Shown here: positions 276 to 39,885 of the stretch, piece after piece | Numbering within the stretch: the first letter of the stretch is position 1 | Layout: every line of letters begins with the position of its first letter | Origin: a virus | Taxonomy: Duplodnaviria > Caudoviricetes | DNA: 64,000 nucleotides | Virus record (IMG/VR): IMGVR_UViG_3300029288_003134 | Span: 28,559 to 92,558 of that record | Reading direction: 5' to 3' (one strand) | Program-made: the position numbers and the translations under genes | The notes under the pieces: generated by a model | What the model was told of the DNA's origin: nothing | Database searches by the model: none | What the model saw: only the letters and a program-made list of their open reading frames with translations

Positions 276-1214
276 ATGGATTTCTTGATTCCAGCTGGTA
301 GTGCAACCAATCTCCCTAAGGAATTGGTGAACAAGATTGTCGAAGACGCGATTGAGAAGTCGCTGATTTTGAAGTTGGTTGATGACCGCGATCAGATGAT
401 CGAGATTGTCAACGAGGGAACTATCCCGGTTATCGGTGAGGAAGACCTGGACAAGGTTTACCGCTTGGATAACACTGCGGATATTACCACGCTTACCGAG
501 ATGAGTTTTGATATTAAGTCACCTGACCTCGAACCTGTCGAGATGGGTACTTACATCTACCTCAAGAAGAAGCAGGTTCAGCAGTACAATGAATTGAAGC
601 TCGATCAGCTTTTCCGTAACAAGATCAGCCGCGCCATTGCCCGCACTGCGGACAAAATCGCCCTCAAAGGTGACACTGGTGCTGTTGGTGCTACGAACCC
701 GCTGAACATTGCGGACGGTATTGAGAAGTTGGCTTTGACGGCTAATTGCGCCAATGCTCCCGTTGAGTATTCTACCTCCAATTCCCAGAACGTGTTGGAT
801 GCGGTAGCCGAAGCTCAGAACGATCTGGGTGCCTACGGTGCTGATGAGTCTATTGAAGACCTCGTGATTTTCGGTTCTGCGGCTTTTGTTGGGGCTGCGA
901 AGAAATCTGCCGATAAGAACATGGTCGGGTATGAGATTATGGACGTTCCGGCTCTCGGGCTGCGTCAGGTTGTGCATGTCCATGGTATTCCGGTTATTCG
1001 TCGGTTGAACATCACTGGTGAAAAAGCGATCTTGGCGAATGTGAAGGGTCTGTTCGTCGGGTACTATGGTAACATCGAAGTTGACGTGGAGCATAAGGCG
1101 GGTCGTCGGGCTGATTTGATGGTCGTAACCTATTGGTATGACAATGTTTGGGCCTTTGTCAATGGTTCCAACAAGTCTGAAGGTATGGTCACGATTCAAA
1201 AAGCCAGCTCGTAA
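276..1214 (+). CDS. Major capsid protein (HK97 fold)
   Basis: 312 aa; N-terminal LPKELVNKIVEDAIEKSLILKL, central 'ISRAIARTADKIALKGD', 'VHGIPV' motifs typical of HK97-type MCPs; strong RBS AAGGAGG; followed by a terminator. Confidence 0.85.
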   Translation: MDFLIPAGSATNLPKELVNKIVEDAIEKSLILKLVDDRDQMIEIVNEGTIPVIGEEDLDKVYRLDNTADITTLTEMSFDIKSPDLEPVEMGTYIYLKKKQVQQYNELKLDQLFRNKISRAIARTADKIALKGDTGAVGATNPLNIADGIEKLALTANCANAPVEYSTSNSQNVLDAVAEAQNDLGAYGADESIEDLVIFGSAAFVGAAKKSADKNMVGYEIMDVPALGLRQVVHVHGIPVIRRLNITGEKAILANVKGLFVGYYGNIEVDVEHKAGRRADLMVVTYWYDNVWAFVNGSNKSEGMVTIQKASS

Positions 1215-1231: not shown

Positions 1232-1266
1232 AGGAGGGGTCAGGTTTTCCTGGCTCCTCCTTTTTT
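1232..1266 (+). terminator. Intrinsic terminator after MCP
   Basis: AGGAGGGGTCAGG-TTTT-CCTGGCTCCTCCT hairpin followed by a T-run. Confidence 0.85.
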
Positions 1267-1270
1267 ATTC

Positions 1271-1299
1271 TTGACTCTGTGAATTTTTTGTGGTATACT
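1271..1299 (+). promoter_or_regulatory. sigma70-type promoter for the RNA unit
   Basis: TTGACT-17 bp-TATACT with extended -10 TG. Confidence 0.8.
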
Positions 1300-1320
1300 T
1301 TTGGCATGCTCTTTGAATTT

Positions 1321-1394
1321 TCAAGCCGAGCTTTCTCCCGTAATTACGGGTCTTTGAATACCTGAGGGCTAACCTCAGAAGGAAGGCAGCTTGA
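1321..1394 (+). ncRNA. Putative structured RNA (three-way junction), family unknown
   Basis: TCAAGC/GCTTGA and CTTTC/GGAAG closing stems enclose hairpins CCCGT-AATT-ACGGG and CTGAGG-GCTAA-CCTCAG; lies between the promoter and the tRNA. Confidence 0.45.
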
Positions 1395-1400
1395 TATTTT

Positions 1401-1474
1401 GGCGGGTTAATGTAGTGGCCGCATGGGATGTTCATACCTTCTCAGACACGGTTCGATTCCGTGGCCCGCAACCA
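1401..1474 (+). tRNA. tRNA with CAT anticodon (Met/fMet-like, atypical)
   Basis: Cloverleaf: acceptor GGCGGGT/GCCCGCA, D-stem ATGT/GCAT, anticodon loop TTCATAC, T-arm CACGG-TTCGATT-CCGTG, encoded ACCA end. Confidence 0.8.
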
Positions 1475-1475
1475 T

Positions 1476-1610
1476 AGGCGCATGTACCATGCGTACAAGA
1501 GCGCACGGGAGTACCTCAGTAATGGGGTTCGCCTGAGGCAGTAATCTCGGGGCAGATATAAACGGACGGGATAACTCGGAGTACCTCTGCCCATAACTCC
1601 GAGCTCTTTT
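1476..1610 (+). ncRNA. Putative structured RNA / terminator downstream of the tRNA
   Basis: AGGCG/CGCCT, CCTCAG/CTGAGG, GGGCAGA(1550-56)/TCTGCCC(1586-92) and CTCGGAGT(1575-82)/ACTCCGAG(1596-1603) pairings, followed by CTCTTTT. Confidence 0.4.
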
Positions 1611-1614
1611 ACTC

Positions 1615-1643
1615 TTGACACCGTAGTAAATGTGTGCTATACT
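1615..1643 (+). promoter_or_regulatory. sigma70-type promoter for the glycosyltransferase cassette
   Basis: TTGACA-17 bp-TATACT with extended -10 TG. Confidence 0.8.
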
Positions 1644-1691
1644 TTTATTGTAAAGTGTAAAACTCCAAATTTTAAATTGTTAGGAGAAACC

Positions 1692-4082
1692 GTGTCTGCA
1701 ATCCGATTGATCTCAGAAGAAATTTCAATTTATTCTTTCCAAGCCGCAGATAAACCGCTGCATTGTCAGCAGAATTATATCTTTCAGGCCCCCGCAGGAA
1801 AGCTCTCTCTTCTTTGCTTTGCCAGTCATCAGAACCCCGAGGCAGAAATGCACCCTTTCGTGGCGCAAGCCATCAAAAACGACCTGGGTGTGGTCTATAT
1901 TTGCGAAAAATTGCCGAAAAACCTCATTATCGACCCGCATGTGACTTATTTAGAGGCCCCGTATCGGTGGTTTTTGCATACACTTTTTATGAACCCTCTT
2001 CGGTTTTCTGGCGTCTTTGCGACTCAAGAATCCCTCCGTTTGGCGCAGGCTTTCAGTGAGTTCACAGGTTATTCGATTCCGCACATACGAAATGAGCAAA
2101 TTTTTTCTGCTTTTGCTAAAAAGGCCGAGGCAACCCGTAAAAATGTGCTCGTTGAGGTTATCGGTGGAGTCGGAGATCACTTAATGGCAATCCCCGCGAT
2201 AAAAACTTTAGACGCGAAAGGCTATCATGTTTCGATTTTGTGCGAGGCTCACAGAAATCCGTGCTTCCAGAATTTACCCTATGTGCGATCTATTTTTGCT
2301 CAGCGCAAAGAGGTGGACGTTTCTAATTTTGGTCGAATTATCATGTTGCATTTTGGACAACAGCTTAATGATTATCGCTTAGACTTGAATAAAAAAAATC
2401 GGATTTATTCTGTTGCTGAATTATGCGGCTTGAAGCCGGAAGATTTAGTCATTAAACGGCCTGAAATTATTCTGACGAAAGATGAATTGAATAACGCTCA
2501 ACGAAAATTCGGCTCTTATTCAAATAAAATATTTTTTGGCAGTGACAGCGCGAGAGTTGATGCTAAAATACCCGCAGTGCTCGCACAAGAAAAAATCAAT
2601 ATTTTGAAGGGTAAAGGTTTCACAGTTTTTTCTGCATCGGTGCGAAGAGAACAACATGAAAACTGCATTGATCTAAATAAGAAGCTAGAATTACGTGAAC
2701 TTTTTGCCATCATTTCTTTAATGGATTGTGTTTTAACCGTTGACACCTCTTTTGTTCATATTGCTGCCGCATTCAATAAAAAAACATTTTGTCTATTAAA
2801 TTATTTCAAACCGGATTGGCGTTGCGGAACATACCCGAATTGCGTAGTATATACACCCAAGGTTCCATGTTATCCCTGCGTTGCGAAACAGTTCGTAGCA
2901 TCTTGCGAGTGGCAGTGTCATACCAAGTCTTGTTATGAGTTTTTTGATTGGGAGCGAATTATTTCGGATATTTATGATTTTAAGCTTACCAAAGAATTAA
3001 AGGAACAGGAAAAAATTCGTGTTATACCAACCCCCGTGGCTCCTATTTTAACAACCGAGACACAGGTTAAAGAAGCCGCTCCGGGCAAACTTATAAACGT
3101 CCGAGAATTTTCCGGCCCACGCATTGCGGCTATTTGGATGGGTGGGGTTGGCGATACTGTTATGCTCGGATATTTGTGTCGGGCAATTTTAGCAAAATAC
3201 CCGGATGCTCAAATCGACGCCTATGTTCGAGATGTTACACAGACAGCGTTGTTTGTTTTTGATTATCCACAAATAAAGGGCTGTGTTTCCAAGTTATCTT
3301 GGGGAAAAACGCTCGAAAAGATCAAGGCTGATTATGACTTTGTGTACGATTTTAGGCCTTACCCGTATGTTTGGAATACTAAAAAACCTGAATTGAATAA
3401 ACCCTTTAATAAGGAACTATATTCTAATTGGGGGAAAGCTACGGGAGAAATATTACGCTCTTGGCAGCAGCAGACTTTTAGATTTTATGCACAGCAGACG
3501 GAGTTAAATCTCACCGAGAAGCATTTAAAAATTCCGTTCTTTCCTAAAGAAGATGCCGCAATTAGATCACGTTTATCTCCCTACGAATTACCTGAAAAAT
3601 ATATCACTATCTCTCCGGGATGCGATCAAAATGTTGGGTTAATGAAGCTCTGGTCGAAAGGTAATTGGCAAACATTAGAGAGTATGCTATTACACGAGGG
3701 TTATAACATAATTTATTTATCTGATAAGGCTTCCCCCCAAATCTTAGAATCTAAAAAAACTGTATGCAAAAATTTAATCGACATGCTGCTTATTTTGCAA
3801 CAAGCCAGTTTAAACGTGAGTAATGAGGGTGGTTCCATTCATCTAGCACATGCGGTGGGCACAAAGAGTGTGGTTCTTTTCGGGCCGACTAATCCAGAAT
3901 TATACGGTTACGCAGACAACATAAATATTTATAAGCCGCATTGTCCGACCTGTTGGTGGACTGCGCCTGAGTGGTCAAAGTTCTGTAAGAAGCATTATCG
4001 AGCCTGTATCAATCTTGTAGATATTTCTGTTCAGGAAGTTTATGATGCAGTTATTTCTGGAGTTTCCAATGTCAAAAATTAA
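1692..4082 (+). CDS. Tandem GT9 (ADP-heptose heptosyltransferase-like) glycosyltransferase
   Basis: Two GT-B repeats: GGVGDHLM…LTVDTSFVHIAAAFNKK…CYPC and GGVGDTVM…SNEGGSIHLAHAVGTKSVVLFGPTNP…CPTCWW. Start reassigned to GTG at 1692 (RBS AGGAG) because 1632 lies inside the promoter. Confidence 0.85.
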   Translation: MSAIRLISEEISIYSFQAADKPLHCQQNYIFQAPAGKLSLLCFASHQNPEAEMHPFVAQAIKNDLGVVYICEKLPKNLIIDPHVTYLEAPYRWFLHTLFMNPLRFSGVFATQESLRLAQAFSEFTGYSIPHIRNEQIFSAFAKKAEATRKNVLVEVIGGVGDHLMAIPAIKTLDAKGYHVSILCEAHRNPCFQNLPYVRSIFAQRKEVDVSNFGRIIMLHFGQQLNDYRLDLNKKNRIYSVAELCGLKPEDLVIKRPEIILTKDELNNAQRKFGSYSNKIFFGSDSARVDAKIPAVLAQEKINILKGKGFTVFSASVRREQHENCIDLNKKLELRELFAIISLMDCVLTVDTSFVHIAAAFNKKTFCLLNYFKPDWRCGTYPNCVVYTPKVPCYPCVAKQFVASCEWQCHTKSCYEFFDWERIISDIYDFKLTKELKEQEKIRVIPTPVAPILTTETQVKEAAPGKLINVREFSGPRIAAIWMGGVGDTVMLGYLCRAILAKYPDAQIDAYVRDVTQTALFVFDYPQIKGCVSKLSWGKTLEKIKADYDFVYDFRPYPYVWNTKKPELNKPFNKELYSNWGKATGEILRSWQQQTFRFYAQQTELNLTEKHLKIPFFPKEDAAIRSRLSPYELPEKYITISPGCDQNVGLMKLWSKGNWQTLESMLLHEGYNIIYLSDKASPQILESKKTVCKNLIDMLLILQQASLNVSNEGGSIHLAHAVGTKSVVLFGPTNPELYGYADNINIYKPHCPTCWWTAPEWSKFCKKHYRACINLVDISVQEVYDAVISGVSNVKN

Positions 4083-4554
4083 CCTTGGTTGTGGTGACGT
4101 AAAAATGCCTGGCTTTATCAATGCGGATATTCGGCCTGAAGTTAAGCCTGATATGTGCATAGATATTTCTGAGCTCTCTCAGTTTAAGGATGGAGAATTT
4201 ACCTACATGTTAGCGCATGATGTTTTGGAACATTTTCCACACGCGCAGGTTTGGACTGTCTTGGCGAATTGGATACGCTGTTTAGCTGTGGGCGGTAGGT
4301 TGGAGATTCAGGTTCCAAGTATTGATCGAATTTATGCGGATAGAAAGAACTTAATCGAGCGATATGGTGGAGACTCCTCTGGTAGGTTTTCTAAGTTGAT
4401 TTTTGGTGGGCAGAGTTATCCAGCTAATTTTCATTTTGTTTGTTTTACTCCAGAATTTTTCCAGTTAGTCGCAAAGAAATTCGGATTAAAAATTGAATCC
4501 TACAGCCCAGTTGGATTATACAATCATAAGGTTATTTTTTTGAGGTTAAAATGA
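4069..4554 (+). CDS. Class I SAM-dependent methyltransferase (type 11-like)
   Basis: KINLGCG, HDVLEHF, LAVGGRLEIQVP motifs; ATG at 4069 with GGAG RBS. Confidence 0.85.
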   Translation: MSKINLGCGDVKMPGFINADIRPEVKPDMCIDISELSQFKDGEFTYMLAHDVLEHFPHAQVWTVLANWIRCLAVGGRLEIQVPSIDRIYADRKNLIERYGGDSSGRFSKLIFGGQSYPANFHFVCFTPEFFQLVAKKFGLKIESYSPVGLYNHKVIFLRLK

Positions 4555-5426
4555 ATTTATATAAGGCAAAATGTCTCTGGCTCACAGATTACACGGTAAA
4601 AGAGGTTCCGGCAGGCGGAGCTGAAATTACCGACTCTTGGGTTTTAAAAGCGGCCCAAGTTTCCGGCCTATCTGTAACAGTGGCCCGGCCTATGGACATG
4701 CGGACGGATGTTTTGGATGCAGCGGATTTTGTGATCTTCAGCAATAATTACGAATTTCCAGCCGCTTGCCGAGAGGCTGTAATACGGCGGAAACCCTATA
4801 TCGTTTATTCGCATGATTCTGGCCGTTGGAATGACGTTTTTATAAAGACTCCCGGAATGTGCGCGGGTGCCTTAGGGTCAATCTTTTTGTCACCTTTGCA
4901 TCAGCAGTCTTTGGAACGGCATTTATCCGGTGCAAAAAATGTCGTTTGTGTTCCACCACACATCACGCTGGATTTTTATGATAAAGGCGCGGCCCGAGAA
5001 AACAAAGTAATGTTTGTTGGAAATGTCCATAGAGGCAAGGGTGTTTGTGAAATTATCCAGTGGGCCCGAAAAAACCCGCAGATTCACATTGATTTTTATT
5101 ACCAGCGCGGTCAGACTGATCTTTTGGAGACATTAAAGCGTTTAAATAATTGTCATTTAATAGGTTACGTGCCAAAAGAGGAGATTTTCGAGCGGTACAA
5201 TCGGTATCGGTATTTTATCCATATCCCCGAGCATTACGAGTCTTTCGGGCGTGCCGTGGGCGAGGCCTACCTAAGCGGCTGCCAGTTGATTGTTAATGAT
5301 CGGGTAGGGGCCTGCTCCTATGGGTGGAATTATTCAAAATTTAGGGAAATGACTGCAAATGCTCATTTTATGTTCTGGAATCGTGTGGAAATGATGCTAA
5401 AAAGCGCAGAATCGGTACAGGCTTAA
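4551..5426 (+). CDS. GT4-like glycosyltransferase
   Basis: GGAE N-terminal motif, FVGNVHRGKG, ESFGRAVGEA (ExFG…E) donor-binding motif. Confidence 0.85.
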   Translation: MNLYKAKCLWLTDYTVKEVPAGGAEITDSWVLKAAQVSGLSVTVARPMDMRTDVLDAADFVIFSNNYEFPAACREAVIRRKPYIVYSHDSGRWNDVFIKTPGMCAGALGSIFLSPLHQQSLERHLSGAKNVVCVPPHITLDFYDKGAARENKVMFVGNVHRGKGVCEIIQWARKNPQIHIDFYYQRGQTDLLETLKRLNNCHLIGYVPKEEIFERYNRYRYFIHIPEHYESFGRAVGEAYLSGCQLIVNDRVGACSYGWNYSKFREMTANAHFMFWNRVEMMLKSAESVQA

Positions 5427-5457
5427 TTGTATTTAATAATAGGAGGGGTCTGTCATA

Positions 5458-5901
5458 ATGAAATCCTATATTTTTGGCAAATTTACTATCGGGGATAAGC
5501 TCATTCTGACCTCTTTTCAGAATCTTGTGGGAAGCTGTGAATATTTGGGTGAGCGGGTTGATCTTTCCAAGGTTACGGTTGAGGACGAAAATTTAATCGT
5601 CGTGATGAATCCTAGCCTTTTTCAGATCGACCTGGATAAAGTTTTGGGATACATTCGGAAAGATTGCAGCAAGCCTTTAGTGGTGGTGAAAAAGATTAAG
5701 ACTTTTGCCACATTCTTTTTTGAGCCGAATTTTAAGCTGGAAAGAATTACCACGAATAAGGCTTACACGTTTGCCGGAATTCTCTATGTTCCTGGGAATT
5801 ATTTAAAAAATTTGGATGAAGAGAATCCTACCATGTCGGCCATTTTTAGATCGGTTCCTAAAGATGACTGGCGTTATTATTTTATCAGTCACGTGAGGTA
5901 A
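5458..5901 (+). CDS. Degenerate sugar-phosphate nucleotidyltransferase-like protein
   Basis: ENLIVVMNPSLFQIDLDKVL and TFATFFFEPNFKLERITTNKAYTFAGILYV resemble the NTP_transferase core; the GxGTR motif is absent. Confidence 0.4.
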   Translation: MKSYIFGKFTIGDKLILTSFQNLVGSCEYLGERVDLSKVTVEDENLIVVMNPSLFQIDLDKVLGYIRKDCSKPLVVVKKIKTFATFFFEPNFKLERITTNKAYTFAGILYVPGNYLKNLDEENPTMSAIFRSVPKDDWRYYFISHVR

Positions 5902-5904
5902 GCT

Positions 5905-6150
5905 GTGCCATACGAGAAGGAACATGTCGCGGTGATTCGTAGAAAGGGTGATTTTAAACTCTTTCGTAGGAAGACAGATGAGTTTGGTTCTGGCATAGAC
6001 GTTATTTATGGTCAGCTAAAGAGAACAGAGATGTGGGAAATTCACTCGATTCATTTTAATTCGGATAATTTTACCACCAGGGAAGCGCAGAAGTGGCTGC
6101 GCGATCATGGTTTTAAATACATCAAATTTGAACCAGCCACGGGAGAATAA
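5905..6150 (+). CDS. Small conserved phage head-region protein
   Basis: PYEKEH…FRR…GIDVIYG…EIHSIHF…EAQKWLRDH pattern, recalled from domains next to or fused with prohead proteases. Confidence 0.5.
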   Translation: MPYEKEHVAVIRRKGDFKLFRRKTDEFGSGIDVIYGQLKRTEMWEIHSIHFNSDNFTTREAQKWLRDHGFKYIKFEPATGE

Positions 6151-6152
6151 TC

Positions 6153-6740
6153 ATGGCCTTAATCACTAAAGCAAATGTGGCAGTAGCTCTTGGTATTGCA
6201 ACAACTGATATTCCTGACTCGGTATACACCTGGGCCACGAAGCAGTTTTTTGTTTTAACGGGCCTTTCTTCAGCCGAGGTAACGAGGATTTATCGGAAAC
6301 TGCTTCAGACAAGTACGGCTTATTTGAAGTTGCCGTACACGAATATAAAAAATATTACCACCATCAAGTTAGATGGAGTTACGCAGTCTTTTACCTTGCA
6401 TACAGATGTGAAGTTTAATCCCGACACTGGGGTTATTTGGTATTCCACAGGTTTTGGTGGCGGTCAGTTGGCCGAGGTCACAGTAACCTTAAATGCCTTT
6501 GTAGCAGAGGATATGCACGATTATTTAATCACGCTTTTAGTGGCAAAGTCTTTGGCGATCTTTACCCCGGATGTTATCAAGCAGGTAAAGATGATTAAAA
6601 TAGGAAATTATCAGAAGCAATACGGCGGGTCTTCCAGTAATCTTGAGGATTATCAGGCATCTTTGGAGATTGAAATTGGTAAGGTCGTGGCAATGATTCA
6701 AGGTGATGACGGACATTTGGCTTTTGGGATTATCCAGTAA
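6153..6740 (+). CDS. Head-tail adaptor/connector (gp6/gp15-like)
   Basis: MALITKANV N-terminus, C-terminal 'IKIGNYQKQYG', position in the neck module. Confidence 0.65.
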   Translation: MALITKANVAVALGIATTDIPDSVYTWATKQFFVLTGLSSAEVTRIYRKLLQTSTAYLKLPYTNIKNITTIKLDGVTQSFTLHTDVKFNPDTGVIWYSTGFGGGQLAEVTVTLNAFVAEDMHDYLITLLVAKSLAIFTPDVIKQVKMIKIGNYQKQYGGSSSNLEDYQASLEIEIGKVVAMIQGDDGHLAFGIIQ

Positions 6741-6752
6741 TCGGAGTATACA

Positions 6753-7097
6753 ATGTCAGACCCAGTATTCGACAGCTTGCTTAATCATACTTGCACCATC
6801 AAGCGACGTAGTGTGGCTACTACTACGGTGGATAAGTGGGGGGCTGGGGTGGAGACTATCACATCCGTAGGTACTGGGGTGGCCTGTAAAGTTCAACAGC
6901 GTGCAGAGGCAGTAGAGTTTACCCGTAGGGGTGAAAAGGTAATTTCTCGACACATAGCTTTCTTTAAAATAGGTGCGAATATTCAGGAAGATGACATAGT
7001 GGTTTTTGATAATATTTCTTATAGAGTTGCGGCGGTTGAAGACGCAGCTGGTATGGGGCATCATTTAGAGGTTGCGCTTTTTGTATTAGAGAATTGA
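6753..7097 (+). CDS. Head closure / head-tail joining protein (SPP1 gp16-like)
   Basis: LLNHTCTIKR…DKWG…IQEDDIVVFDNISYRV…HHLEV pattern. Confidence 0.75.
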   Translation: MSDPVFDSLLNHTCTIKRRSVATTTVDKWGAGVETITSVGTGVACKVQQRAEAVEFTRRGEKVISRHIAFFKIGANIQEDDIVVFDNISYRVAAVEDAAGMGHHLEVALFVLEN

Positions 7098-7645
7098 GGC
7101 TCATTATGGAAGGCAGTTTTATTATTGATGATTCTCAATTAACACGATACATCAATGCTATGACAGGAATGCCATTAAGAATGTCGGCTGTAAATTCAAG
7201 GTGGATAAAAAAGCTGACTAATTATACCCATAAAAAAATGAGTTTGTATGCGCGGTCAAGATCACCACGGTCAACCGGGAACTTAGTCTCATCTATAGAT
7301 TCAGATTATTCTTTAAATGGAACTACTCTATCTGGTAGAGTTTTTGTGTCTGACAATGTGAAATATCAGTTTGCTCAAGAGGAGGGTAATAGTCGAAAAT
7401 CTGTTATTCTTGGGCGGCCTTTAATGACCTTTTCTACGACAGCTTGGAAAAATGCTCGTAGGGCTTCTTCCGCTGGTTTAGTCATGCAGCCACACAGAGG
7501 TTATTACGTTTTTGCTAAAGTAACACGTGGAAAATATCGGGGTAAACATTTTACGCAGAGAGCGTTTAATAGTTTGCTGACTTATTATAATTCAGTAGAG
7601 GGAAAAATATATACTGACTTAGTTTCGGCAATTTCACGGGGTTAA
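7094..7645 (+). CDS. Tail completion/neck protein (HK97 gp10-like)
   Basis: SPRSTGNLVSSI…YQFAQEEG…GKHFTQRAF motifs. Confidence 0.7.
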   Translation: MRLIMEGSFIIDDSQLTRYINAMTGMPLRMSAVNSRWIKKLTNYTHKKMSLYARSRSPRSTGNLVSSIDSDYSLNGTTLSGRVFVSDNVKYQFAQEEGNSRKSVILGRPLMTFSTTAWKNARRASSAGLVMQPHRGYYVFAKVTRGKYRGKHFTQRAFNSLLTYYNSVEGKIYTDLVSAISRG

Positions 7646-7646
7646 T

Positions 7647-8075
7647 ATGAAGCTGATCGCAGAGAGAATTATAGCATATTTGAAGAATGACTCAACCTTA
7701 ACTACACTTTTAGGGTCGAGTAAAAATATTTTTGCGGAAAATCTACAGGAGCCCGAAAATCGGAAGACAAAATATGTGGTTATTCCGGTAGAGCCAGGCG
7801 AGGACTTAAATTATGCCTCTGGGCAACAGGGTAGTTTTGTTATTGAGGTGTGCGTGAGTAGGACTATTGCTGGAGCCTTCGGTGTATGCCTGAATATTGC
7901 GGATAGGGTAGACGCTCTTTTAAATAAAGGTGAGGCTGGCCTAAGTACGACTGGTTGGAAAGTTGTACATATTAAACGTACAGGCTCCCCCTCTCACGGG
8001 CCTTTAGTTGATAAAGAAGCCGGAGAGGTCTATATAGATTTAGAGTACGAGTATTTACTTGATGAAAGTGCGTAA
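7647..8075 (+). CDS. Tail terminator protein
   Basis: IIAYLKNDSTLTTLLG…IADRVDALL pattern, 142 aa, position after the gp10-like gene. Confidence 0.65.
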   Translation: MKLIAERIIAYLKNDSTLTTLLGSSKNIFAENLQEPENRKTKYVVIPVEPGEDLNYASGQQGSFVIEVCVSRTIAGAFGVCLNIADRVDALLNKGEAGLSTTGWKVVHIKRTGSPSHGPLVDKEAGEVYIDLEYEYLLDESA

Positions 8076-8118
8076 AATTGTTTACGGCACATTGACCTAA
8101 CAAACAGGAGGTAGTAAA

Positions 8119-8424
8119 ATGTCAGAGAAAATCAATTTGTCTCAGTCTACGGAATTTCAATTACGTGGTAATGTAACGCTTCAGGTCTATCCCGCCTCAC
8201 TCGAAGTATTATCTCTTCTTTCCCCTAAATTGGACGAGATGAATAAGCTCACTAAATCTACTGATATGAAGAAACAGATGGAGGTTTTTTTGGATGTTAT
8301 CTTCGAGCTTGTTAAAGACGACAATGACATCAAGAAAACTGATTTAAGTAAGGTTTTGACTGTTGAGGCAGGCGTTAAGATTATGCAGAAAGCTCTTGGT
8401 AATTTCGGAAATATTTTAGCATAG
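8119..8424 (+). CDS. Probable tail assembly chaperone
   Basis: Small helical protein, strong RBS, upstream of the tape measure gene. Confidence 0.5.
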   Translation: MSEKINLSQSTEFQLRGNVTLQVYPASLEVLSLLSPKLDEMNKLTKSTDMKKQMEVFLDVIFELVKDDNDIKKTDLSKVLTVEAGVKIMQKALGNFGNILA

Positions 8425-12480: not shown

Positions 12481-14793
12481 GTGGCTAATACATTTTTAAC
12501 TTATGATGAATTAACGGTGCCCTCTGGGGATATACTCTTAACTTATGATGAGTTGACTGTCCCAATAGACCCAAATAGGCATTTGACTTATGATGAATTA
12601 ACGGTTCCAGCAACGATTCAGCATACGGCCATTCTATCTTGGCAGAATTGGCAGATTCAGGAATTATTTCCTGGGTTGGATTGGCTTACGCAGGGTAATA
12701 CAGATTTTAAACCAAATCTTATAAATTATAGTTTTGATTATTTACTTCCGAATATTATTTCAGACGTTTATCCAATAGGCTTTTCTGGTGTTTGTCCAGG
12801 TTTCACTTTACATTTAGGCAATACTGGGAGCTCTGGACAGACGATTATAGAACTTTATGCTTTGGGTATTTTGCAGCATACGGAAGTAATTTCGGCTACG
12901 GGTTTAAAGTTTCAAAAAGTTATAAACTTAGATATGGGCTTTTTAATGCGGCCTTTGGGTGAGTTTGAATTGCGTATTACACAAATTGCTCAGGGTTGTA
13001 CAGATTTAAAAGTAAACGCTTATTTAATGACTTTTCCTTTTGAGGCTAATATTTTATCTTATGGAAATTTAATTGATTCTAAAAAAGTAAATGGCTTAGG
13101 TTCTGAGTATTTATTTTATGATGCAGATACCTGGTTTATTGAGCTTAATCAACCAATAGTATCCTTAGATTCAGTAGTGGCTGTAAATAAGTCAGGTAAT
13201 GCTGTAGAACTGGTTGGCACACTGGGTCAAGGAACATTTTATAATAACCAGATTACATTATTGCCCTATACCGCTGAAAGTATAGATAAGCTAAGAATTC
13301 GTATTTTAGATTTTTCTGGTCATTACAGAACACTGGAAATATCCCCAAACACTGCACCAAAATATTCTGTTTGGCCGGAATATGCTTCTGATACGATTTC
13401 TAGTAGTACCTATGGGGTGGTTAATCTTGCGTCTGGCGGTATAGCCTCTGCTTCTAGTGTATATACAGGAGGTGGACATACAGCAGATCAGGCTTCGGAT
13501 GGAAACGATGTTACTTATTGGCGATCTGGTACATCTAATCATTTACCGGAGTCTTGGGCCTATGATTCGGGTTTGGGTAATGAACAAACGATTCGTAGAT
13601 TAAAAATAAAGCCATTATTTTTAACGCATTCTTGTGTTAAGGCTTTTAGTATTTTAGGCTCTAATGAGGCGGCCCCAACTATGCTGGCAGACTCCACCAC
13701 TGGTTGGACGACTCTGGCGTACTTTGAGGCGGAAGATTCGAATACTTGGCAGACATTCGATTTTGAAAATTCGGTAGCGTATAGGCATTATCGAATAAAT
13801 ATAGGTAGTTCTTATGATGCCGCTTTGGAGACAGGTTTATACGGGATAGAATTTTATACGGGTGTTGATACCCTGACCAGTAATCTATCTGTAATTTGCC
13901 TTTTGGATACCAAGCGGTATCGTTATAGTTTTGATGGTGTAAATTTTTCTTCTTGGGCAAATATAGATATTGATAATTTGCTCACGGTAGATTTCTCTAC
14001 ACAAAATTATGGTCAGTTAAATTTAACTCTTGAATACGATAATGGTGTAGATATTTTACAGGAAACAGTTAGTATTTTTTATATCAGTGCGGTAATAGAC
14101 TGTTCTGGTTTATTTGAGGGGCCATTAATTCAGATAAATTATTCTGATATAGTTCCGTTTAAACAGGCAAATTTATATTATGACGGAATATTGGTAGACC
14201 AGTATATACAGCCAATTTTATATGGTTTTAGTTCATTTAATTTGAATATGACTACAGGCGAGGTTGAATCCGCTGCTGGTACGGTTTATTATAATGGTGA
14301 AAAATTTAGTTGGCCTGGAACAAATTTAGCCATAGATATAGACCCAGAATTATATGATTATAATTGGCGAGTTATTTTTGGCTTTAATACAAATACGAAA
14401 GAATTTGAATTAAATTATTTTGTAAACACATCACCGAATAAACCACCAACAGAGGTTTTTGATAATTTTATTCCTATTTGGGCGGGTGATTTTTCATTAT
14501 TCTTTACCATAACACCGTTTTCTTGGGATTTTATTGTAGAGTACAATCCAAGAGTTTATTCTCTTTATCAAGCCATAGGTTTGCCATTGGACACGACATT
14601 TAATGGCATAGTTACATTATCTATTTTTGATATTTCTGGTAGGCAACGGGATTTTGTATTAAATACAATAAAAACAAAATATAATATATGGAGAACACTT
14701 GAAGTAACCACGGCAACCTCGGATATTATTTTACCTGGGCAGATTCATCAAGAAGCCACCCTAAATTATATAGTTACTTCAGACGGAGTTTAA
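12481..14793 (+). CDS. Tail/baseplate protein with discoidin (F5/8 type C)-like domain
   Basis: ASASSVY…ADQASDGNDVTYW…AFSILGSN…AYRHYRINI; N-terminal LTYDELTVP x3. Confidence 0.6.
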   Translation: MANTFLTYDELTVPSGDILLTYDELTVPIDPNRHLTYDELTVPATIQHTAILSWQNWQIQELFPGLDWLTQGNTDFKPNLINYSFDYLLPNIISDVYPIGFSGVCPGFTLHLGNTGSSGQTIIELYALGILQHTEVISATGLKFQKVINLDMGFLMRPLGEFELRITQIAQGCTDLKVNAYLMTFPFEANILSYGNLIDSKKVNGLGSEYLFYDADTWFIELNQPIVSLDSVVAVNKSGNAVELVGTLGQGTFYNNQITLLPYTAESIDKLRIRILDFSGHYRTLEISPNTAPKYSVWPEYASDTISSSTYGVVNLASGGIASASSVYTGGGHTADQASDGNDVTYWRSGTSNHLPESWAYDSGLGNEQTIRRLKIKPLFLTHSCVKAFSILGSNEAAPTMLADSTTGWTTLAYFEAEDSNTWQTFDFENSVAYRHYRINIGSSYDAALETGLYGIEFYTGVDTLTSNLSVICLLDTKRYRYSFDGVNFSSWANIDIDNLLTVDFSTQNYGQLNLTLEYDNGVDILQETVSIFYISAVIDCSGLFEGPLIQINYSDIVPFKQANLYYDGILVDQYIQPILYGFSSFNLNMTTGEVESAAGTVYYNGEKFSWPGTNLAIDIDPELYDYNWRVIFGFNTNTKEFELNYFVNTSPNKPPTEVFDNFIPIWAGDFSLFFTITPFSWDFIVEYNPRVYSLYQAIGLPLDTTFNGIVTLSIFDISGRQRDFVLNTIKTKYNIWRTLEVTTATSDIILPGQIHQEATLNYIVTSDGV

Positions 14794-14795
14794 TT

Positions 14796-17378
14796 ATGGC
14801 AGACACTTATGTTTTATCTGATGATAATTCTGGTTTTGTTTTAGAAATACCTGTGACCATACCTATTATTTGGCGTACTCGCACGGTTCAGAATACTTAT
14901 CCTTGGGGTACTCCTTATATAAGTGCTCCAATTTTTTCTGGTCAGTTTACAACCTTCGTTAATAATAAGGTGGTTTATTCTGCGTGGACTTCTGGCGGGG
15001 AGGCCGGATTATACAGGCGTGTTTGTAGATACCAAAGTATTCTACTTCCGATGTTAGCAAAGCTAAAGGAATATGGTTTTATGACTACTTTAACCGTTGC
15101 TGTAGTAACAGCATACTATTTATATACTGAGGATATAAATGCTGAGATTGATTGGTACGCTACATTTAAAGCCCTGAGACTATTATATCCGCCGGAATAT
15201 TATACGCTAGGTTCGGTGCGCCTTGTCAAGGCAGACTTATCTGAAAGTCAAAATTTAGTTTCAGAGGGCCTCGTAGACTTAGATATGTTAAAACAAAAGT
15301 ATGCAAATGCCTTAGTTGAGGGTGAGAAGAGTTATGGACAACTGTTAAGTATGCCAGCAGATATTCCTATGCAGAAAAAAACTATGGATTTATCTTCTCA
15401 GGACGGCCCAACTGATTTCGAAGCCTCTTATTATGACCCAACAAAGGGGGCACCAACTATTCCCAGCATTTCTGGGGTAAATAGAGATTTTAGTGGGGAG
15501 ATACCTACGTTGGGTTTGAATTCATGTATACAGGATAATAGGACAGTTTATATGTATTTAAGGGTTTGGGTAAAATCTATTGTAGCTATTGGTGGGGGTT
15601 CAACTGATTTTGCACAGCCAGAGGCAATTACCCAGTCAGATACCTCAGATGCTAGTTTAGATGATGTTACCGGACACGTTGGGAGTTCGGTTTCTGGGAG
15701 TTCTATTGGGGCACAAAAACAGGGGTTAAATAAGACCTTTACTAATTATGGAAATACTCAGTTAGATTTTGATTCCGTTTATTTAACTGGAACAAATTAT
15801 TCCGGTTTTGTTGCGGCAGGTGGTGGAATTATTTCGGAGGCTGGCGTATTTCCAATAAATCAAAATTTATACATAGAGTCGGTAAAGTTGAGTTTAGACG
15901 GGAGTACAATGACTGTAGTTGAGATTGTAGACTTCGATGCTCAACCATCTTTATCTATAAATCAGAAGTTGTATGGTTATTTATTTGATGATACCCATTC
16001 CAGTAAGCCTATTTTTTGTGGCTATGTTAGCTCTTTTCAAAGAACATTAAATGGTGAAACACAGCAAATTACTTATGAGTGCCGTGATCTACTCTTTTAT
16101 TTGAATCAAATGTATTCTCCTTCTGTATATCATGTACAGGCTGGTGACATCACATACTCGGATGCAGTAAAAAGTATACTAAATACGGCGGGCCTTTCTA
16201 CGTCTATCGTTAATTTACCTACTGTAGATACCCCAGAAATAAGTTGGTTGTATGAGCCACTAAAAAATATTCTTGATTGGGCTACAAAGTATTTTGGAAA
16301 ATATGTTTATTTTCAAGACAGACATGGACGTTTAAATATTCGTGCTACAGATAGCGGTAGTTTTATAAAAAATATCGTAATCCCATCTGTAGGTACAGCA
16401 ATATCCTCCAGCCATAGGACGATGAGTTTTAATCCAATTACGGATTATTCTAGGGCCAGGAATCAAGTTATTCTTACCGGAGATTTTTCGGTCACAGAAA
16501 CTACGCAAACACTCCGGTATAATCTTACTGGGCCTGTGCATTTAAGCTCAGCTGTTGGACGCTCTGGTTTTTATTGGGATTTTAGCTCTATTGGTATAGG
16601 TGGGGCTACACAAAGAAAGTTTTATTTTGTTTTTAATACAAAACATACATTATTAGAGAAATTATTGAGCATGCCTAATGAATCGGCTCAGGTGACTCTT
16701 ACCATGACGACTTATTGGGATACATTTTTTCCGGCTGTACCTACAACCGTGACATTGCCTATCACATCTTTTCAGACCGCTGAACATGCGGGTAGAATTA
16801 TTTGTGCCTTTACTCCGGGTGATTTTCCTGTAGGCACCATGATTCCGATAGAGATGAATGGGAGTTCTATTTTTACCGGGCAAGCTACAACAGGTAGAAC
16901 AGAATATACGTTCAATGTTACTTATGCCTATAAAAGTGATAATCCCATCCAAGTTACTAGATTTTTGGGCTATGGTGGCGGGATTGAGGTTATAAAAAGG
17001 CCCGAATTCAAGGATGTGAATAGCCCCGCTGGAAAGGTATCAGATAAACTTTTGATGGAGGCTTACCTGGATTATATCAAGGAGTTTTATAAGCCCATAT
17101 ATGGGGGCTCTCTTGAAATGGATGGGTTAGATTTGGACGTGGAATTACTTGGTAAAGTCTCGGTGACTGGGACTAATCTTAGTGCCACCGAAGCGTCTAA
17201 TTTAATTATTTATGGAATTACCTATGATGTAGTGAAGCAAAAGACGAGCCTAGAGTTATCAAATAAGGTTTTTTCAGATTTACCTTATTTTGATGTTTTA
17301 AAAGAGCGCGCTAGGTCTAACAATGAGTCTTTAGTCAAACTTGGTTTACTTGAACAAAAATCGTTATATAATACATAA
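14796..17378 (+). CDS. Tail tip / baseplate hub protein
   Basis: IFCGYV…ITYECRDLL…YFQDRHGRLNIR…NQVILTG hub-like pattern. Confidence 0.6.
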   Translation: MADTYVLSDDNSGFVLEIPVTIPIIWRTRTVQNTYPWGTPYISAPIFSGQFTTFVNNKVVYSAWTSGGEAGLYRRVCRYQSILLPMLAKLKEYGFMTTLTVAVVTAYYLYTEDINAEIDWYATFKALRLLYPPEYYTLGSVRLVKADLSESQNLVSEGLVDLDMLKQKYANALVEGEKSYGQLLSMPADIPMQKKTMDLSSQDGPTDFEASYYDPTKGAPTIPSISGVNRDFSGEIPTLGLNSCIQDNRTVYMYLRVWVKSIVAIGGGSTDFAQPEAITQSDTSDASLDDVTGHVGSSVSGSSIGAQKQGLNKTFTNYGNTQLDFDSVYLTGTNYSGFVAAGGGIISEAGVFPINQNLYIESVKLSLDGSTMTVVEIVDFDAQPSLSINQKLYGYLFDDTHSSKPIFCGYVSSFQRTLNGETQQITYECRDLLFYLNQMYSPSVYHVQAGDITYSDAVKSILNTAGLSTSIVNLPTVDTPEISWLYEPLKNILDWATKYFGKYVYFQDRHGRLNIRATDSGSFIKNIVIPSVGTAISSSHRTMSFNPITDYSRARNQVILTGDFSVTETTQTLRYNLTGPVHLSSAVGRSGFYWDFSSIGIGGATQRKFYFVFNTKHTLLEKLLSMPNESAQVTLTMTTYWDTFFPAVPTTVTLPITSFQTAEHAGRIICAFTPGDFPVGTMIPIEMNGSSIFTGQATTGRTEYTFNVTYAYKSDNPIQVTRFLGYGGGIEVIKRPEFKDVNSPAGKVSDKLLMEAYLDYIKEFYKPIYGGSLEMDGLDLDVELLGKVSVTGTNLSATEASNLIIYGITYDVVKQKTSLELSNKVFSDLPYFDVLKERARSNNESLVKLGLLEQKSLYNT

Positions 17379-17392
17379 CACTGGATTTATTT

Positions 17393-19696: not shown

Positions 19697-19742
19697 ATTA
19701 TTTAGGTTTAATTTTATGTACTAAAACTAATGGGGGTGTAAT

Positions 19743-19994
19743 ATGACGGAACCAAGTAAGGATTTACAGTATTTAGGCGATGGTTTAGGGGCATTTTTTC
19801 CGGCTAAGGACGCAGTTATTGGGGATAAGACCTATCAGGGTTTTATTCACATTTCTGGAGCATCTGTTATTATGCGTATTACGGCAGTGGATGAGAATAC
19901 AAATAATACAGATTATGCGGATGGTGGAAAAGACCTCGTAAATTGGGTGAATAAAGCTAGTTTATCTTATGGGTCTATAAATAGGTTAGCATAA
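19743..19994 (+). CDS. Small tail-associated hypothetical protein
   Basis: 83-aa ORF with RBS between the two fibre genes. Confidence 0.5.
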   Translation: MTEPSKDLQYLGDGLGAFFPAKDAVIGDKTYQGFIHISGASVIMRITAVDENTNNTDYADGGKDLVNWVNKASLSYGSINRLA

Positions 19995-20004
19995 GGAGAA
20001 ATAA

Positions 20005-26948: not shown

Positions 26949-27494
26949 TTATCCTTTGAGGGCGTAAAACCCGGAGGGGCCCTTCTTTAGGTGAAGTCTT
27001 ACGCCTTTTTTGGCCGCTATTCCTCTGTTCAGGGCTTTCAACTCCGGGTTATTCAAGTAACTCCAGATTTTCTGTTTTTGCTCTTCAATCGGCAGACCTT
27101 CAAGTTTTGAGTGTAATTCTTGAGGAACAAAAGCACAATTTTCTAAGGTATAGTTTTTGTCGGAATCAAACCTATGCAAATTGGGTCTCTTCATCCTAGC
27201 TGCTTGGTAAGAATCCCAAAGTTGTTTAATAGTTGTTTTATCTAACTCACACTTAATACCTTTACGTTGATAAGCGGTCTTTTCTCGTTTACACCGCTCC
27301 TTAGCTTTTGACAGAGAGACTAGCCAGGGTTTTAATTTTTTGTATTTTTCGAGATATGCTCTTTGTTTGTCTGGATTTTTCTTTTGCCACTCTCGGACTG
27401 TTTGACTAACCTTAGCTTTATGCCTATAATAATATCGTAATTGTTTTGCAATTAGTCTCAGACGATATTTTTGATATTTGGCAGTAGAGTTCAT
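26949..27494 (-). CDS. HNH-like endonuclease
   Basis: Basic N-terminus; LHRFDSDKNYTLENCAFV resembles DRIDxxxGYxxxNC. Confidence 0.55.
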   Translation of the reverse strand: MNSTAKYQKYRLRLIAKQLRYYYRHKAKVSQTVREWQKKNPDKQRAYLEKYKKLKPWLVSLSKAKERCKREKTAYQRKGIKCELDKTTIKQLWDSYQAARMKRPNLHRFDSDKNYTLENCAFVPQELHSKLEGLPIEEQKQKIWSYLNNPELKALNRGIAAKKGVRLHLKKGPSGFYALKG

Positions 27495-39870: not shown

Positions 39871-39885
39871 TTGTACTTCCTCCTT

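Follow-up and report, generated by a model that had tools for sequence, protein, structure and literature searches.

A capsid-linked glycosyltransferase island in an uncultured tailed phage and its proposed role in virion glycosylation

Organization of the locus

The window analyzed here is a stretch of 64,000 nucleotides (positions 28,559 to 92,558 of IMG/VR record IMGVR_UViG_3300029288_003134) from the ~92-kb genome of an uncultured phage, and the analysis was computational. Downstream of the major capsid protein (MCP) gene, the order is terminator, short non-coding RNA unit, promoter, the genes of a tandem GT9 protein, a methyltransferase, a GT4-type enzyme and a 147-aa protein, and finally the head-tail genes.

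276–1214, + strand: MCP, 312 aa, ending in ...QKASS (Pfam Phage_capsid, PHROG major head protein)
1232–1261, + strand: strong intrinsic terminator 3' of the capsid gene (13-bp stem with 8 GC pairs, T-run)
1271–1610, + strand: non-coding unit under a promoter of its own, containing a tRNA-like element (1401–1474), particular to this phage
1615–1643, + strand: sigma70-type promoter with extended -10, TTGACA-N17-TATACT (11/12 match, with TG), 5' of the cassette
1692–2132, + strand: N-terminal domain of the tandem GT9 protein, residues 1–147, conserved in 21/21 homologues
2133–2993, + strand: first GT9 catalytic domain, residues 148–434 (VIA Z 23.9 to the GT9 structure 3TOV, 20.6 to WaaC)
2868–2933, + strand: predicted Cys4 finger of the first half, CYPC...C...C, C393/C396/C409/C414 (translation, alignment)
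3117–4082, + strand: second GT9 catalytic domain, residues 476–796 (VIA Z 23.3 to WaaF (1PSW), 22.1 to TibC (4RAP), 20.8 to WaaC)
3942–4007, + strand: predicted Cys4 finger of the second half, CPTCWW...C...C, C751/C754/C765/C772 (translation, alignment)
4069–4554, + strand: small class I SAM methyltransferase (ORF from 4042, likely start ATG 4069 after GGAG; Pfam, PHROG)
4551–5426, + strand: GT4-type (GT-B, Glycos_transf_1) glycosyltransferase, 291 aa (Pfam PF00534, 31.8 bits versus 26.4; PF13692)
5458–5901, + strand: conserved 147-aa protein, last of the island, in every close-clade locus covering the region (53–74% identity)
5905–8075, + strand: 81-aa ORF, head-tail adaptor, head completion protein, neck/tail completion protein and tail terminator (PHROG and Pfam connector families; gaps of -4 to +12 nt)

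The four-gene run was found where the first-pass annotation had located it, with families assigned by Pfam and PHROG for all but the fourth gene. It had been described as lying directly after the MCP unit, but between the capsid gene and GT9 lies a 477-nt non-coding unit that includes the tRNA-like element; in most relatives this interval spans just 80–120 nt. The unit has a near-consensus sigma70-type promoter of its own (1271–1299, 10/12) and a fold z-score of -2.0; ARAGORN reads the tRNA-like element as tRNA-Met (CAT), and the Rfam tRNA model scores it below threshold. A hairpin and T-run equivalent to the 1232–1261 terminator stand behind the capsid gene in every relative, which would mean low read-through expression of the genes behind it, suited to enzymes.

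The sigma70 promoter attributed to the cassette is indeed present and near-consensus, but it belongs to a general class, TTGAC(A)-N14-TGTGGTATACT, which occurs at least 13 times in this genome, chiefly at early genes; among relatives, only loci L011 and L014 have a comparable one ahead of GT9. It therefore carries little information on function. With such an early-type promoter, the cassette need not be strictly late in this phage. Between GT9 and the tail terminator gene, neighboring genes are spaced by -41 to +31 nt. The proposed read-through into the head-tail genes agrees with our finding of weak, exclusively intragenic terminator-like hairpins; no strong terminator was found within 5905–8075.

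The tandem GT9 protein

The ORF as listed begins at GTG 1632 (816 aa). The true start is almost certainly GTG 1692, giving 796 aa, because AGGAGA precedes this codon, the promoter -10 lies upstream of it, and the proteins of all relatives, like the database homologue P0005, start at this point. In all of these, a conserved AAATTG(A/T)T(A/G)GGAG box precedes the start. Pfam Glyco_transf_9 (PF01075) matches over two stretches with 77.3 bits (cut-off 22), and structure comparison recovers a complete GT9 fold in both halves, as had been claimed for this ~800-aa protein, with Z scores of 20–24 to 3TOV, WaaF, TibC and WaaC versus at most 12.7 for every other GT-B enzyme. The structural comparison proposed in the first-pass annotation thus gave good matches to WaaC, WaaF and TibC alike, but the three are tied and none is singled out. 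In sequence comparisons the first half scores best with LPS heptosyltransferase I and the second half with heptosyltransferase II, at 48–51 bits versus equivalog cut-offs of 135–185. WaaF was retrieved by phmmer and hmmsearch for the second domain, and the PDB sequence matches of the whole protein are WaaF and WaaC only.

The catalytic motifs are intact in both halves, and the catalytic Asp of GxGD and the C-lobe motifs for the nucleotide sugar are invariant across 21 homologues: GxGD (D162), D285/S286/R288 and D351-T-x-x-x-H356 in the first domain, D488, K652 and N-E-G-G-x-x-H717 in the second. Equally invariant in the 21 homologues are the four cysteines per half, in line with the Cys cluster noted at the end of each domain. 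In three homologues, inteins are inserted exactly before C396, which is the second Cys in the CxxC of the first finger. The usual targets of inteins are sites essential to function, and we count this position as a sign of the finger's importance. The N-terminal domain, modeled by AlphaFold with a pLDDT of about 80–90 as a mixture of strands and helices, accompanies the first GT9 half in stand-alone proteins of 400–445 aa; an Atlas search found no look-alike for residues 1–147.

Accompanying genes

The methyltransferase passes the Methyltransf_11 cut-off (24.3 versus 21.2 bits), matches PHROG 6636 methyltransferase at 4.5e-8 and carries the motif I sequence NLGCG, confirming the enzyme class first read from the sequence. 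Its homologues occur in only part of the relatives (L002, L003, L004, L012, L013). The assignment of a GT4 enzyme likewise stands, with PF00534 above its cut-off and an E-x7-E motif in the translation; this enzyme is present in nine relatives, and other enzymes take its place in L011, L014 and L020. The fourth product had been called nucleotidyltransferase-like, a label that the family searches did not bear out: searches of Pfam, PHROG, NCBIfam and PDB gave no match to the 147-aa protein, AlphaFold models it poorly (pLDDT 47.7), and the sole pointer is a language-model look-alike search that returned NTP_transferase clusters at 0.91. A hydropathy scan found no transmembrane segment in any of the four products.

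Capsid linkage and exchange of tailoring genes among relatives

Besides the window, 21 of 22 informative loci keep the order capsid gene, GT9, sugar genes; they represent at least four phage lineages that have diverged widely. The synteny of GT9 and sugar genes with the MCP gene, for which the first-pass annotation had proposed a search, is thus shared by several lineages. Capsid proteins of the GT9-linked lineages are 70–87%, 39% and 28–48% identical, and that of L017 is recognizable by Pfam only. In L021, the GT9 gene lies apart from any recognizable capsid gene in the stretch that was fetched.

Between conserved anchors, the tailoring genes are exchanged among relatives (sulfo-, pyruvyl-, glycerophospho-, methyl-, acetyl- and aminotransferases), and the island is a swap site. 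For example, relatives' islands contain APS kinase with sulfotransferase, pyruvyl transferase, and TagF-like and LicD phosphotransferases; others hold cytidylyl/adenylyltransferase-like proteins, a nucleotide-sugar dehydrogenase-like protein, FkbM, TylF and other methyltransferases, GNAT, aminotransferases and epimerase/dehydratase.

The tandem GT9 family has no homologue in 185,579 prokaryote genomes and is therefore a lytic-phage gene; the same absence rules out a prophage or lysogenic conversion gene. GenBank phages gave no DNA or protein match to this phage, and no cultured relative was found.

A heptose-containing glycan, as first suggested, is plausible because a heptose-7-phosphate kinase gene was found in four of the five related genomes examined (rfaE_dom_I 296–315 bits versus ribokinase 83–96); small rfaE_dom_II/TagD-like transferases also lie within relatives' islands. 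However, no heptose-pathway or activation gene was found in this genome, and we assume that the host supplies ADP-heptose.

Comparison with known systems

WaaC (HepI) and WaaF (HepII) of CAZy GT9/PF01075 (2H1H, 6DFE, 1PSW) have the same GT-B GT9 fold as both phage halves (Z 20–23) and share the N-lobe GxGD Asp and the C-lobe K...W and D/E-x-G/S-x-x-H motifs. In LPS synthesis two enzymes act serially on one acceptor, whereas the phage has two GT9 domains fused in one chain. The phage protein is only 13–20% identical to them and differs by two Cys4 fingers and by an additional N-terminal domain of 147 aa. Its gene lies behind the capsid gene of a lytic-type phage, with no LPS genes nearby and no relatives in bacterial genomes. 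Its acceptor is probably not lipid A-core.

The bacterial autotransporter heptosyltransferases TibC and AAH (BAHTs; 4RAP/4RB4; eLife 2014, PMC4358343) set a precedent, in that they O-heptosylate, in the cytoplasm, a protein whose gene lies beside their own. Like the phage enzyme, they place a GT9-like catalytic domain (TibC residues 96–392, Z 22.1) behind an extra N-terminal domain, and a four-Cys metal finger (C339/342/358/370 in TibC; metal binding is predicted for the phage fingers) near the C-terminus before the last helix. The stand-alone proteins of the phage family, which combine N-domain, GT9 and finger, are common and about the size of TibC. The relation to TibC/AAH drawn in the first-pass annotation thus holds for architecture but not for sequence, which leads to WaaF/WaaC; neither sequence nor profile searches with the phage protein retrieved TibC at E up to 1. 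The N-terminal domain is a beta-barrel in TibC and predicted to be mixed alpha/beta in the phage, the phage enzyme has two catalytic domains in tandem, and its candidate neighbor substrate is a capsid protein instead of a beta-helical autotransporter.

Mycobacteriophages of clusters F, O and C offer the closest functional model: in the secondary accounts of PMC11600133 and PMC12619734, which cite Freeman et al. 2023, phage glycosyltransferases encoded beside an O-methyltransferase modify the subunits of capsid and tail tube, reportedly with glycans at their C-termini. Hosts in that case are actinobacterial, and those phages are unrelated to the one described here. We know of no description of GT9 or tandem enzymes, Cys4 fingers or a hypervariable sulfation, pyruvylation and glycerophosphate set in the mycobacteriophage cassettes. 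The chlorovirus PBCV-1, a eukaryotic giant virus, decorates its major capsid protein with its own cytoplasmic machinery, comprising a multi-domain glycosyltransferase (A064R) and methyltransferases, by means of GT-A type enzymes and atypical N-linked glycans. These enzymes have no homology to the phage cassette; the likeness lies in the plan of virus-encoded capsid decoration, which for the phage is proposed.

Proposed function and alternatives

We consider it somewhat more likely than not that the island is a late cytoplasmic system that decorates virion proteins with a methylated glycan built on heptose. Coexpressed with the genes of the virion, it would attach a short glycan to abundant virion proteins; the capsid protein is the first candidate acceptor, and the tail tube protein may be another. 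From the gene set we infer acceptor, donor, order of steps and benefit. The 796-aa enzyme would bind its acceptor via the N-terminal domain and the two Cys4 fingers, and its two GT9 sites would successively add two sugars, drawing on a nucleotide sugar that the host makes and that is probably ADP-heptose. The first sugar would go onto a Ser/Thr hydroxyl and the second onto the first. The GT4 enzyme might then add a further sugar, and the methyltransferase would cap a hydroxyl. The two candidate acceptors show the highest conservation of all proteins in the clade (capsid 70–87%, putative tube protein P0040 88–98%, most others about 45–60% identical) and have a Ser/Thr C-terminal end in every lineage examined; for the capsid this holds in 16 of 16 tabulated GT9-linked proteins and two more. 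This pattern may be inherited structure, because the capsid proteins are homologous. Counting against virion glycosylation, the closest characterized enzymes by sequence act on LPS, not on protein.

The latter point speaks for host envelope remodeling, in which a fused WaaC/WaaF-like pair would add heptoses to the inner core of host LPS, or to some other glycolipid, on the cytoplasmic side of the membrane, with GT4 and methyltransferase extending the product; the changed receptor would cause superinfection exclusion or keep progeny off debris. The heptosyltransferase I and II matches of the two halves follow the LPS pathway order, the PDB matches point the same way, and in this phage the cassette lies behind a host-type promoter that belongs to the early class. 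However, the match scores fall far short of the equivalog cut-offs, most relatives lack the promoter, and the position in the virion block directly 3' of the capsid gene is preserved across the divergent lineages. Flippase, membrane and periplasmic components are absent, the four products have no predicted membrane segment, the family was never found among bacterial genomes or prophages, and LPS made late in a lytic cycle would have little time to reach the surface. This alternative, already raised in the first-pass annotation, is thereby weakened, and we regard it as unlikely.

Also improbable is another virion or phage protein as acceptor, be it the Ser/Thr-rich fibers and receptor-binding proteins (12481–23379) or the head fibers adjacent to relatives' islands, with adsorption tuned and the head left uncoated. 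The large tail and fiber proteins contain 17–20% Ser+Thr, relatives carry lectin-like or fiber-like ORFs (Laminin_G_3, DUF2793) directly 3' of the island, and TibC-type enzymes act on elongated beta-helical adhesins (PMC4358343). Yet the island is linked to the capsid gene and not to the fiber genes, which lie 7–18 kb downstream, and the island-adjacent fiber-like ORFs are not present in this window.

DNA hypermodification, that is, sugars on hydroxylated pyrimidines of phage DNA as protection against restriction, appears very improbable. Phage GT-B enzymes do attach heptose or Kdo to 5hmC (bioRxiv 10.1101/2023.12.21.572611), and such pathways can include methyltransferase and sugar-activation genes, but those enzymes resembled T4 beta-GT rather than GT9. 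Both known routes require a ThyA or TET-type enzyme, and this genome has no thymidylate-synthase-like hydroxymethylase, hydroxylase or other 5-hydroxy(methyl)pyrimidine genes. The cassette, moreover, stands among virion genes, with the replication genes far off on the opposite strand. A Tet/JBP search of the genome returned no match either, but since the control stayed silent too, this result carries no information.

If virion glycosylation is indeed the function of the island, the presence of other tailoring enzymes in the same slot of relatives would make the glycan type phage-specific, and each phage would bear its own glycan over a very conserved protein shell.

Gene organization between the capsid and neck genes

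The source IMG/VR virus record comprises 92,558 bp, of which the window covers 28,559–92,558, and is rated complete. Virion genes form a plus-strand block at positions 1–23,400 of the window, and the minus-strand remainder holds portal, replication and recombination genes. Neither the window DNA nor its capsid or GT9 protein matched any GenBank phage, and the window phage represents an uncultured lineage. Among 185,579 prokaryote genomes searched, no relative of the tandem GT9 enzyme was found; the enzyme is thus not part of prophage conversion modules, and prophages give no clue to the host, to which a weak GcrA-like domain in the genome is only a hint.

Features of the capsid–cassette region (window positions)
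276–1214, plus strand: major capsid gene (Pfam Phage_capsid)
1232–1261, plus strand: strong terminator 3' of the capsid gene
1271–1299, plus strand: near-consensus promoter
1271–1610, plus strand: promoter-bounded non-coding unit between capsid gene and cassette
1615–1643, plus strand: second promoter (11/12 match, extended -10)
1692–4082, plus strand: tandem GT9 gene (796 aa)
4069–4554, plus strand: small SAM methyltransferase gene (probable start ATG 4069)
4551–5426, plus strand: Glycos_transf_1 (GT4-type) enzyme, 291 aa, E-x7-E motif
5458–5901, plus strand: gene of the 147-aa protein P0004

The first-pass annotation had described a four-gene run after the capsid gene, and this description holds with three exceptions, namely the length of the GT9 protein, which is 796 and not 816 aa, the spacing from the capsid gene and the identity of the fourth product. 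The long ORF is listed from GTG 1632 (816 aa); judged from sequence, the start is almost certainly GTG 1692, since this codon is preceded by AGGAGA, lies downstream of the promoter, yields the 796-aa form known from databases and is the start common to all relatives. A conserved AAATTG(A/T)T(A/G)GGAG box precedes the GT9 start in all relatives. The run does not directly follow the capsid unit, as had been stated, but is separated from the capsid gene by a 477-nt RNA unit, with about 310 nt of non-coding DNA after the promoter at 1271–1299. After the 147-aa gene come genes for the head-tail adaptor and for head completion, neck and tail terminator proteins. Gene junctions from GT9 through to the tail terminator gene range from -41 to +31 nt, and a strong terminator is absent.

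A nucleotidyltransferase-like function had been assigned to the fourth gene, an assignment we could not reproduce. The profile of P0004 matched neither the PDB nor an NTP-transferase and its AlphaFold model was poor (pLDDT 47.7), which leaves an Atlas look-alike match as the sole lead. PDB sequence searches returned no match for the methyltransferase and insignificant matches only for the GT4 enzyme (E 0.36 or worse). A hydropathy scan of the four island products revealed no transmembrane segment.

Upstream of the capsid gene, the prohead protease is fused to a scaffold-like C-terminal part (L001:600–1730 in the locus flanking the window, ending at window 230) by a long, Pro/Ala/Glu/Thr-rich linker; the fusion protein measures 366 to 508 aa among relatives. 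The portal gene and an adjacent 587-aa ORF, which is probably the terminase (the homologue in the related locus L021 is a 902-aa ORF), are located at window 38656–41649 on the minus strand, opposite to the protease-capsid-tail block and ~37 kb away from it, so that the morphogenesis module is split.

A tandem GT9 enzyme with two finger-bearing modules

The tandem protein reached 77.3 bits with PF01075 (cut-off 22) over two matched stretches, and the domain is present in 35/35 homologues. An AlphaFold model built with 21 homologues as input (mean pLDDT 85) predicted an N-terminal domain of mixed strands and helices (residues 1–147), for which an Atlas look-alike search gave no match, followed by two complete GT-B domains. 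Residues 148–434 of the model scored Z 23.9 to the GT9 structure 3TOV and 20.6 to WaaC, and residues 476–796 scored Z 23.3 to WaaF, 22.1 to TibC and 20.8 to WaaC, while all non-GT9 GT-B enzymes remained at Z 12.7 or below to either half.

Across the 21 homologues, the GxGD aspartates D162 and D488 are invariant in the motif alignment, as are K652, which aligns with the lysine of the WaaF 'AKRW' motif, and D351-T-S-F-V-H356 and N711-E-G-G-S-I-H717, which align with N-D-S-G-L-M-H of WaaF; overall identity of the homologues sharing these motifs is just 46–66%. Since the GxGD aspartate and the C-lobe nucleotide-sugar motifs are kept in both halves, both sites look active. Each half further carries four invariant cysteines (C393/C396/C409/C414 and C751/C754/C765/C772), which the alignment and the model place near its C-terminus, before the last helix. 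The CxxCWW finger is also found in single-domain relatives, one of them from an Elusimicrobiota MAG.

Three tandem GT9 homologues (L013:8997–12491, P0007 and P0016) contain an intein of ~350 aa that includes a homing-endonuclease region, an element not usually met in a glycosyltransferase gene. The intein sits immediately ahead of C396, the later of the two cysteines in the first CxxC, and C396 acts as its +1 nucleophile; this placement is a sign of strong constraint on the C396 site.

An exhaustive profile search yielded 230 protein clusters at E of 1e-30 or better, including many stand-alone proteins consisting of the N-domain and the first GT9 module (400–445 aa) and stand-alone proteins resembling the second half (310–350 aa). 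As both units also occur separately, the tandem looks like their fusion. Longer homologues were observed as well (P0035, P0051 and L020:8001–12284): P0035, with 1057 aa, has gained a Glycos_transf_2 (GT-A) domain, and the length of one further form is 1427 aa.

In sequence searches, the first half matches LPS heptosyltransferases of type I and the second half those of type II, both far below the equivalog cut-offs (HepI TIGR02193, 48.0 vs 185.3 bits; HepII TIGR02195, 51.1 vs 134.6 bits). PDB searches with phmmer and a 21-sequence profile retrieved WaaF, WaaC and 3TOV, and TibC was not retrieved at E up to 1. On these grounds, the tandem protein is a GT9-family enzyme in a subfamily of its own. 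The structural scores for WaaF, WaaC and TibC are tied within ~2 Z units. TibC, a protein of 406 residues, carries an iron finger formed by C339/342/358/370 (PMC4358343), and the phage Cys4 clusters, as placed by sequence and model, are comparable to it in location. The first phage module would also resemble TibC in its predicted architecture of an extra N-domain, a catalytic domain and a finger. BAHT enzymes (protein heptosyltransferases of the TibC/AAH type) are encoded next to their autotransporter substrates, whereas the phage GT9 gene has the capsid, methyltransferase, GT4 and head-tail genes as neighbours, and no autotransporter gene lies beside the cassette.

Conservation of the island among viral lineages

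A scan of viral contigs with the single protein gave no match, and relatives were recovered once an alignment served as query. For proteins P0045 and P0066, genomic contexts were looked for in viral contigs and none was found. Gene order is uniform in the fifteen IMG/VR loci that fall into the clade of the window phage: the putative tail tube gene (P0040), the protease-scaffold fusion, the capsid protein, a terminator, the tandem GT9 enzyme, variable genes, often a methyltransferase and a GT4 enzyme, the 147-aa protein, sometimes more variable ORFs, and then the head-tail adaptor. The window cassette is the minimal version of this island.

Variable gene products of the island in relatives
Nucleotide-sugar dehydrogenase-like protein; small cytidylyl/adenylyltransferase-like proteins
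APS kinase with sulfotransferase; FkbM-, TylF- and other methyltransferases
LicD and TagF-like phosphotransferases; polysaccharide pyruvyl transferase
NTP-transferase-GNAT fusion; aminotransferases; short-chain dehydrogenase; epimerase/dehydratase

The order protease, capsid, GT9 and sugar genes extends to more distant lineages. It is kept in L016, whose capsid protein is 39% identical, and in L022, L028 and L029, whose capsid proteins are 45–49% identical to each other (28% between L022 and the window) and which encode the two GT9 modules as separate genes. It is also kept in L017 and L018, where the GT9 protein is 25% identical and the capsid protein is recognisable by Pfam alone. In L021, GT9 lies away from any recognisable capsid gene within the stretch retrieved.

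Some relatives carry homing-endonuclease-like ORFs (NUMOD3 or endonuclease I-like) between the capsid and GT9 genes, and one has a cytidylyltransferase-like island protein with a fused HNH domain. These insertions and the exchange of tailoring genes mark the region as a recombination hot-spot.

Homing-endonuclease/HNH ORFs in related loci
L006:1726–2409
L007:3612–4262
L009:6275–6925
L002:14287–15312

Promoter class and intergenic RNA unit

The cassette promoter belongs to the class TTGAC(A)-N14-TGTGGTATACT, of which at least 13 very uniform copies occur genome-wide (for example at window 1271, 1615, 30332(-), 45956(-), 51197(-), 59334(-) and 62682(-)), nearly all of them ahead of minus-strand early or replication genes. 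Of the relatives, L011 and L014 alone carry a comparable promoter ahead of GT9; in the remaining ones, just the ribosome-binding box and the terminator of the capsid gene are present. As most relatives lack the promoter, the general design is read-through from the capsid transcript, and in the window phage an inserted RNA unit brought promoters along. ARAGORN reports a tRNA-like element at 1401–1474 as tRNA-Met (CAT), a call not backed by Rfam's model for tRNA. A different insert occupies the same intergenic spot in L003 and L011, and CTACCAAGTGTAG is present in both of these inserts.

Acceptor, donor and alternative functions

The best-supported reading is an island for virion glycosylation, centred on the tandem GT9 enzyme and its fingers; within this reading we infer the acceptor and the donor. 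Several arguments favour a virion protein as acceptor: the cassette has been linked to the capsid gene since long ago and the linkage is kept, expression falls within the virion block, the hydropathy scan showed no transmembrane segment in the four products and no membrane or periplasmic machinery is present, and the capsid protein and P0040 are conserved while the tailoring set varies from phage to phage. Among relatives, identity amounts to 70–87% for the capsid protein and 88–98% for P0040, compared with ~45–60% for other genes. In gene content (glycosyltransferases and a methyltransferase) and in placement among virion genes, as far as the genes themselves tell, the window matches the mycobacteriophage type of glycosylation cassette.

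P0040 (128 aa) is a probable major tail tube protein whose gene has moved from its usual slot to a place ahead of those for protease and capsid: in L028 and L029, the homologous gene is flanked by the tail terminator gene on one side and the chaperone/tape-measure genes on the other. The corresponding slot in the window (8075–8119) is empty, and relocation would explain the missing tube gene.

P0040 and its homologues
L001:187–573 (27245–27631 of the window's own record, G000): P0040, 927–1313 nt upstream of the window start
L028:12563–12937: homologue
L029:11686–12060: homologue

In every lineage examined, the capsid and putative tube proteins have C-terminal Ser/Thr, with endings such as KASS, KTS, NAS, AST, ATT, TAS, KAS and LGS for the capsid and SDT, AAS, LSS and YSS for the tube. 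PMC12619734 and PMC11600133 report that in mycobacteriophages glycans sit on the C-terminal ends of capsid and tube subunits. Because the proteins are homologous, the C-terminal pattern does not count as evidence but gives a prediction that can be tested.

With regard to the donor, the window genome contains no PfkB kinase, SIS isomerase or cytidylyl/adenylyltransferase; its ADP-heptose would have to come from the host. A heptose-7-phosphate kinase (296–315 bits with rfaE_dom_I vs 83–96 with ribokinase) is encoded in four of the five related genomes checked, far from the glycan island, and three of the five encode a CTP_transf_like protein. These genes support heptose as the probable sugar currency of this enzyme family. 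The rfaE_dom_II/TagD-like transferases are located in the islands of relatives, and by NCBIfam the small transferases could be either glycerol-3-phosphate cytidylyltransferases or heptose-1-phosphate adenylyltransferases.

Heptose-7-phosphate kinase genes in related genomes
L023:1501–2409(-)
L024:1501–2397
L025:1501–2391
L026/L027 (two ends of the record of related genome G002)

Remodelling of host LPS by the cassette would be consistent with the LPS heptosyltransferase matches of the GT9 halves, but we regard it as improbable in view of the conserved structural-gene context of the island, the absence of relatives of the tandem enzyme from the 185,579 prokaryote genomes searched and the lack of export components. 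Glycosylation or hypermodification of phage DNA is likewise unlikely: the known routes need a ThyA-type enzyme, the genome search found no ThyA homologue, and the cassette lies far from the replication genes; the Tet/JBP search of the genome carries no weight, as its control was silent. Within virion glycosylation itself, fibres rather than the capsid may be the glycosylated target.

Implications for phage surface chemistry

To our knowledge, experimental cases of phage-encoded virion glycosylation come almost solely from mycobacteriophages, and protein O-heptosylation has so far been confined to virulence adhesins. The island, as we interpret it, would be a new form of both phage virion glycosylation and protein heptosylation, with the modelled tandem GT9 as a compact two-site glycosyltransferase. 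One could tentatively go further and suppose, as a possibility we hold to be rather doubtful, that such islands are widespread, undescribed 'capsid serotype' loci of aquatic or environmental lytic phages, in which the second GT9 module lengthens the glycan, freely swapped tailoring enzymes (methyl, sulfate, pyruvate, glycerol-phosphate, acetyl, amino) give strain-specific surface chemistry, and the glycan coat takes over diversifying selection from the highly conserved protein shell.

If virion glycosylation by the island is true, several uncultured phage lineages glycosylate their virions via another enzyme family (GT9, heptose-type, with metal fingers) and maintain a hot-spot of glycan-tailoring genes 3' of the capsid gene, which would extend protein O-heptosylation to viruses. 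Phage particles would then carry variable, bacterial-like surface sugars, which would matter for adsorption, for the stability of the particles and for grazing or immune recognition, as well as for how 'auxiliary metabolic' sugar genes of viromes are annotated.
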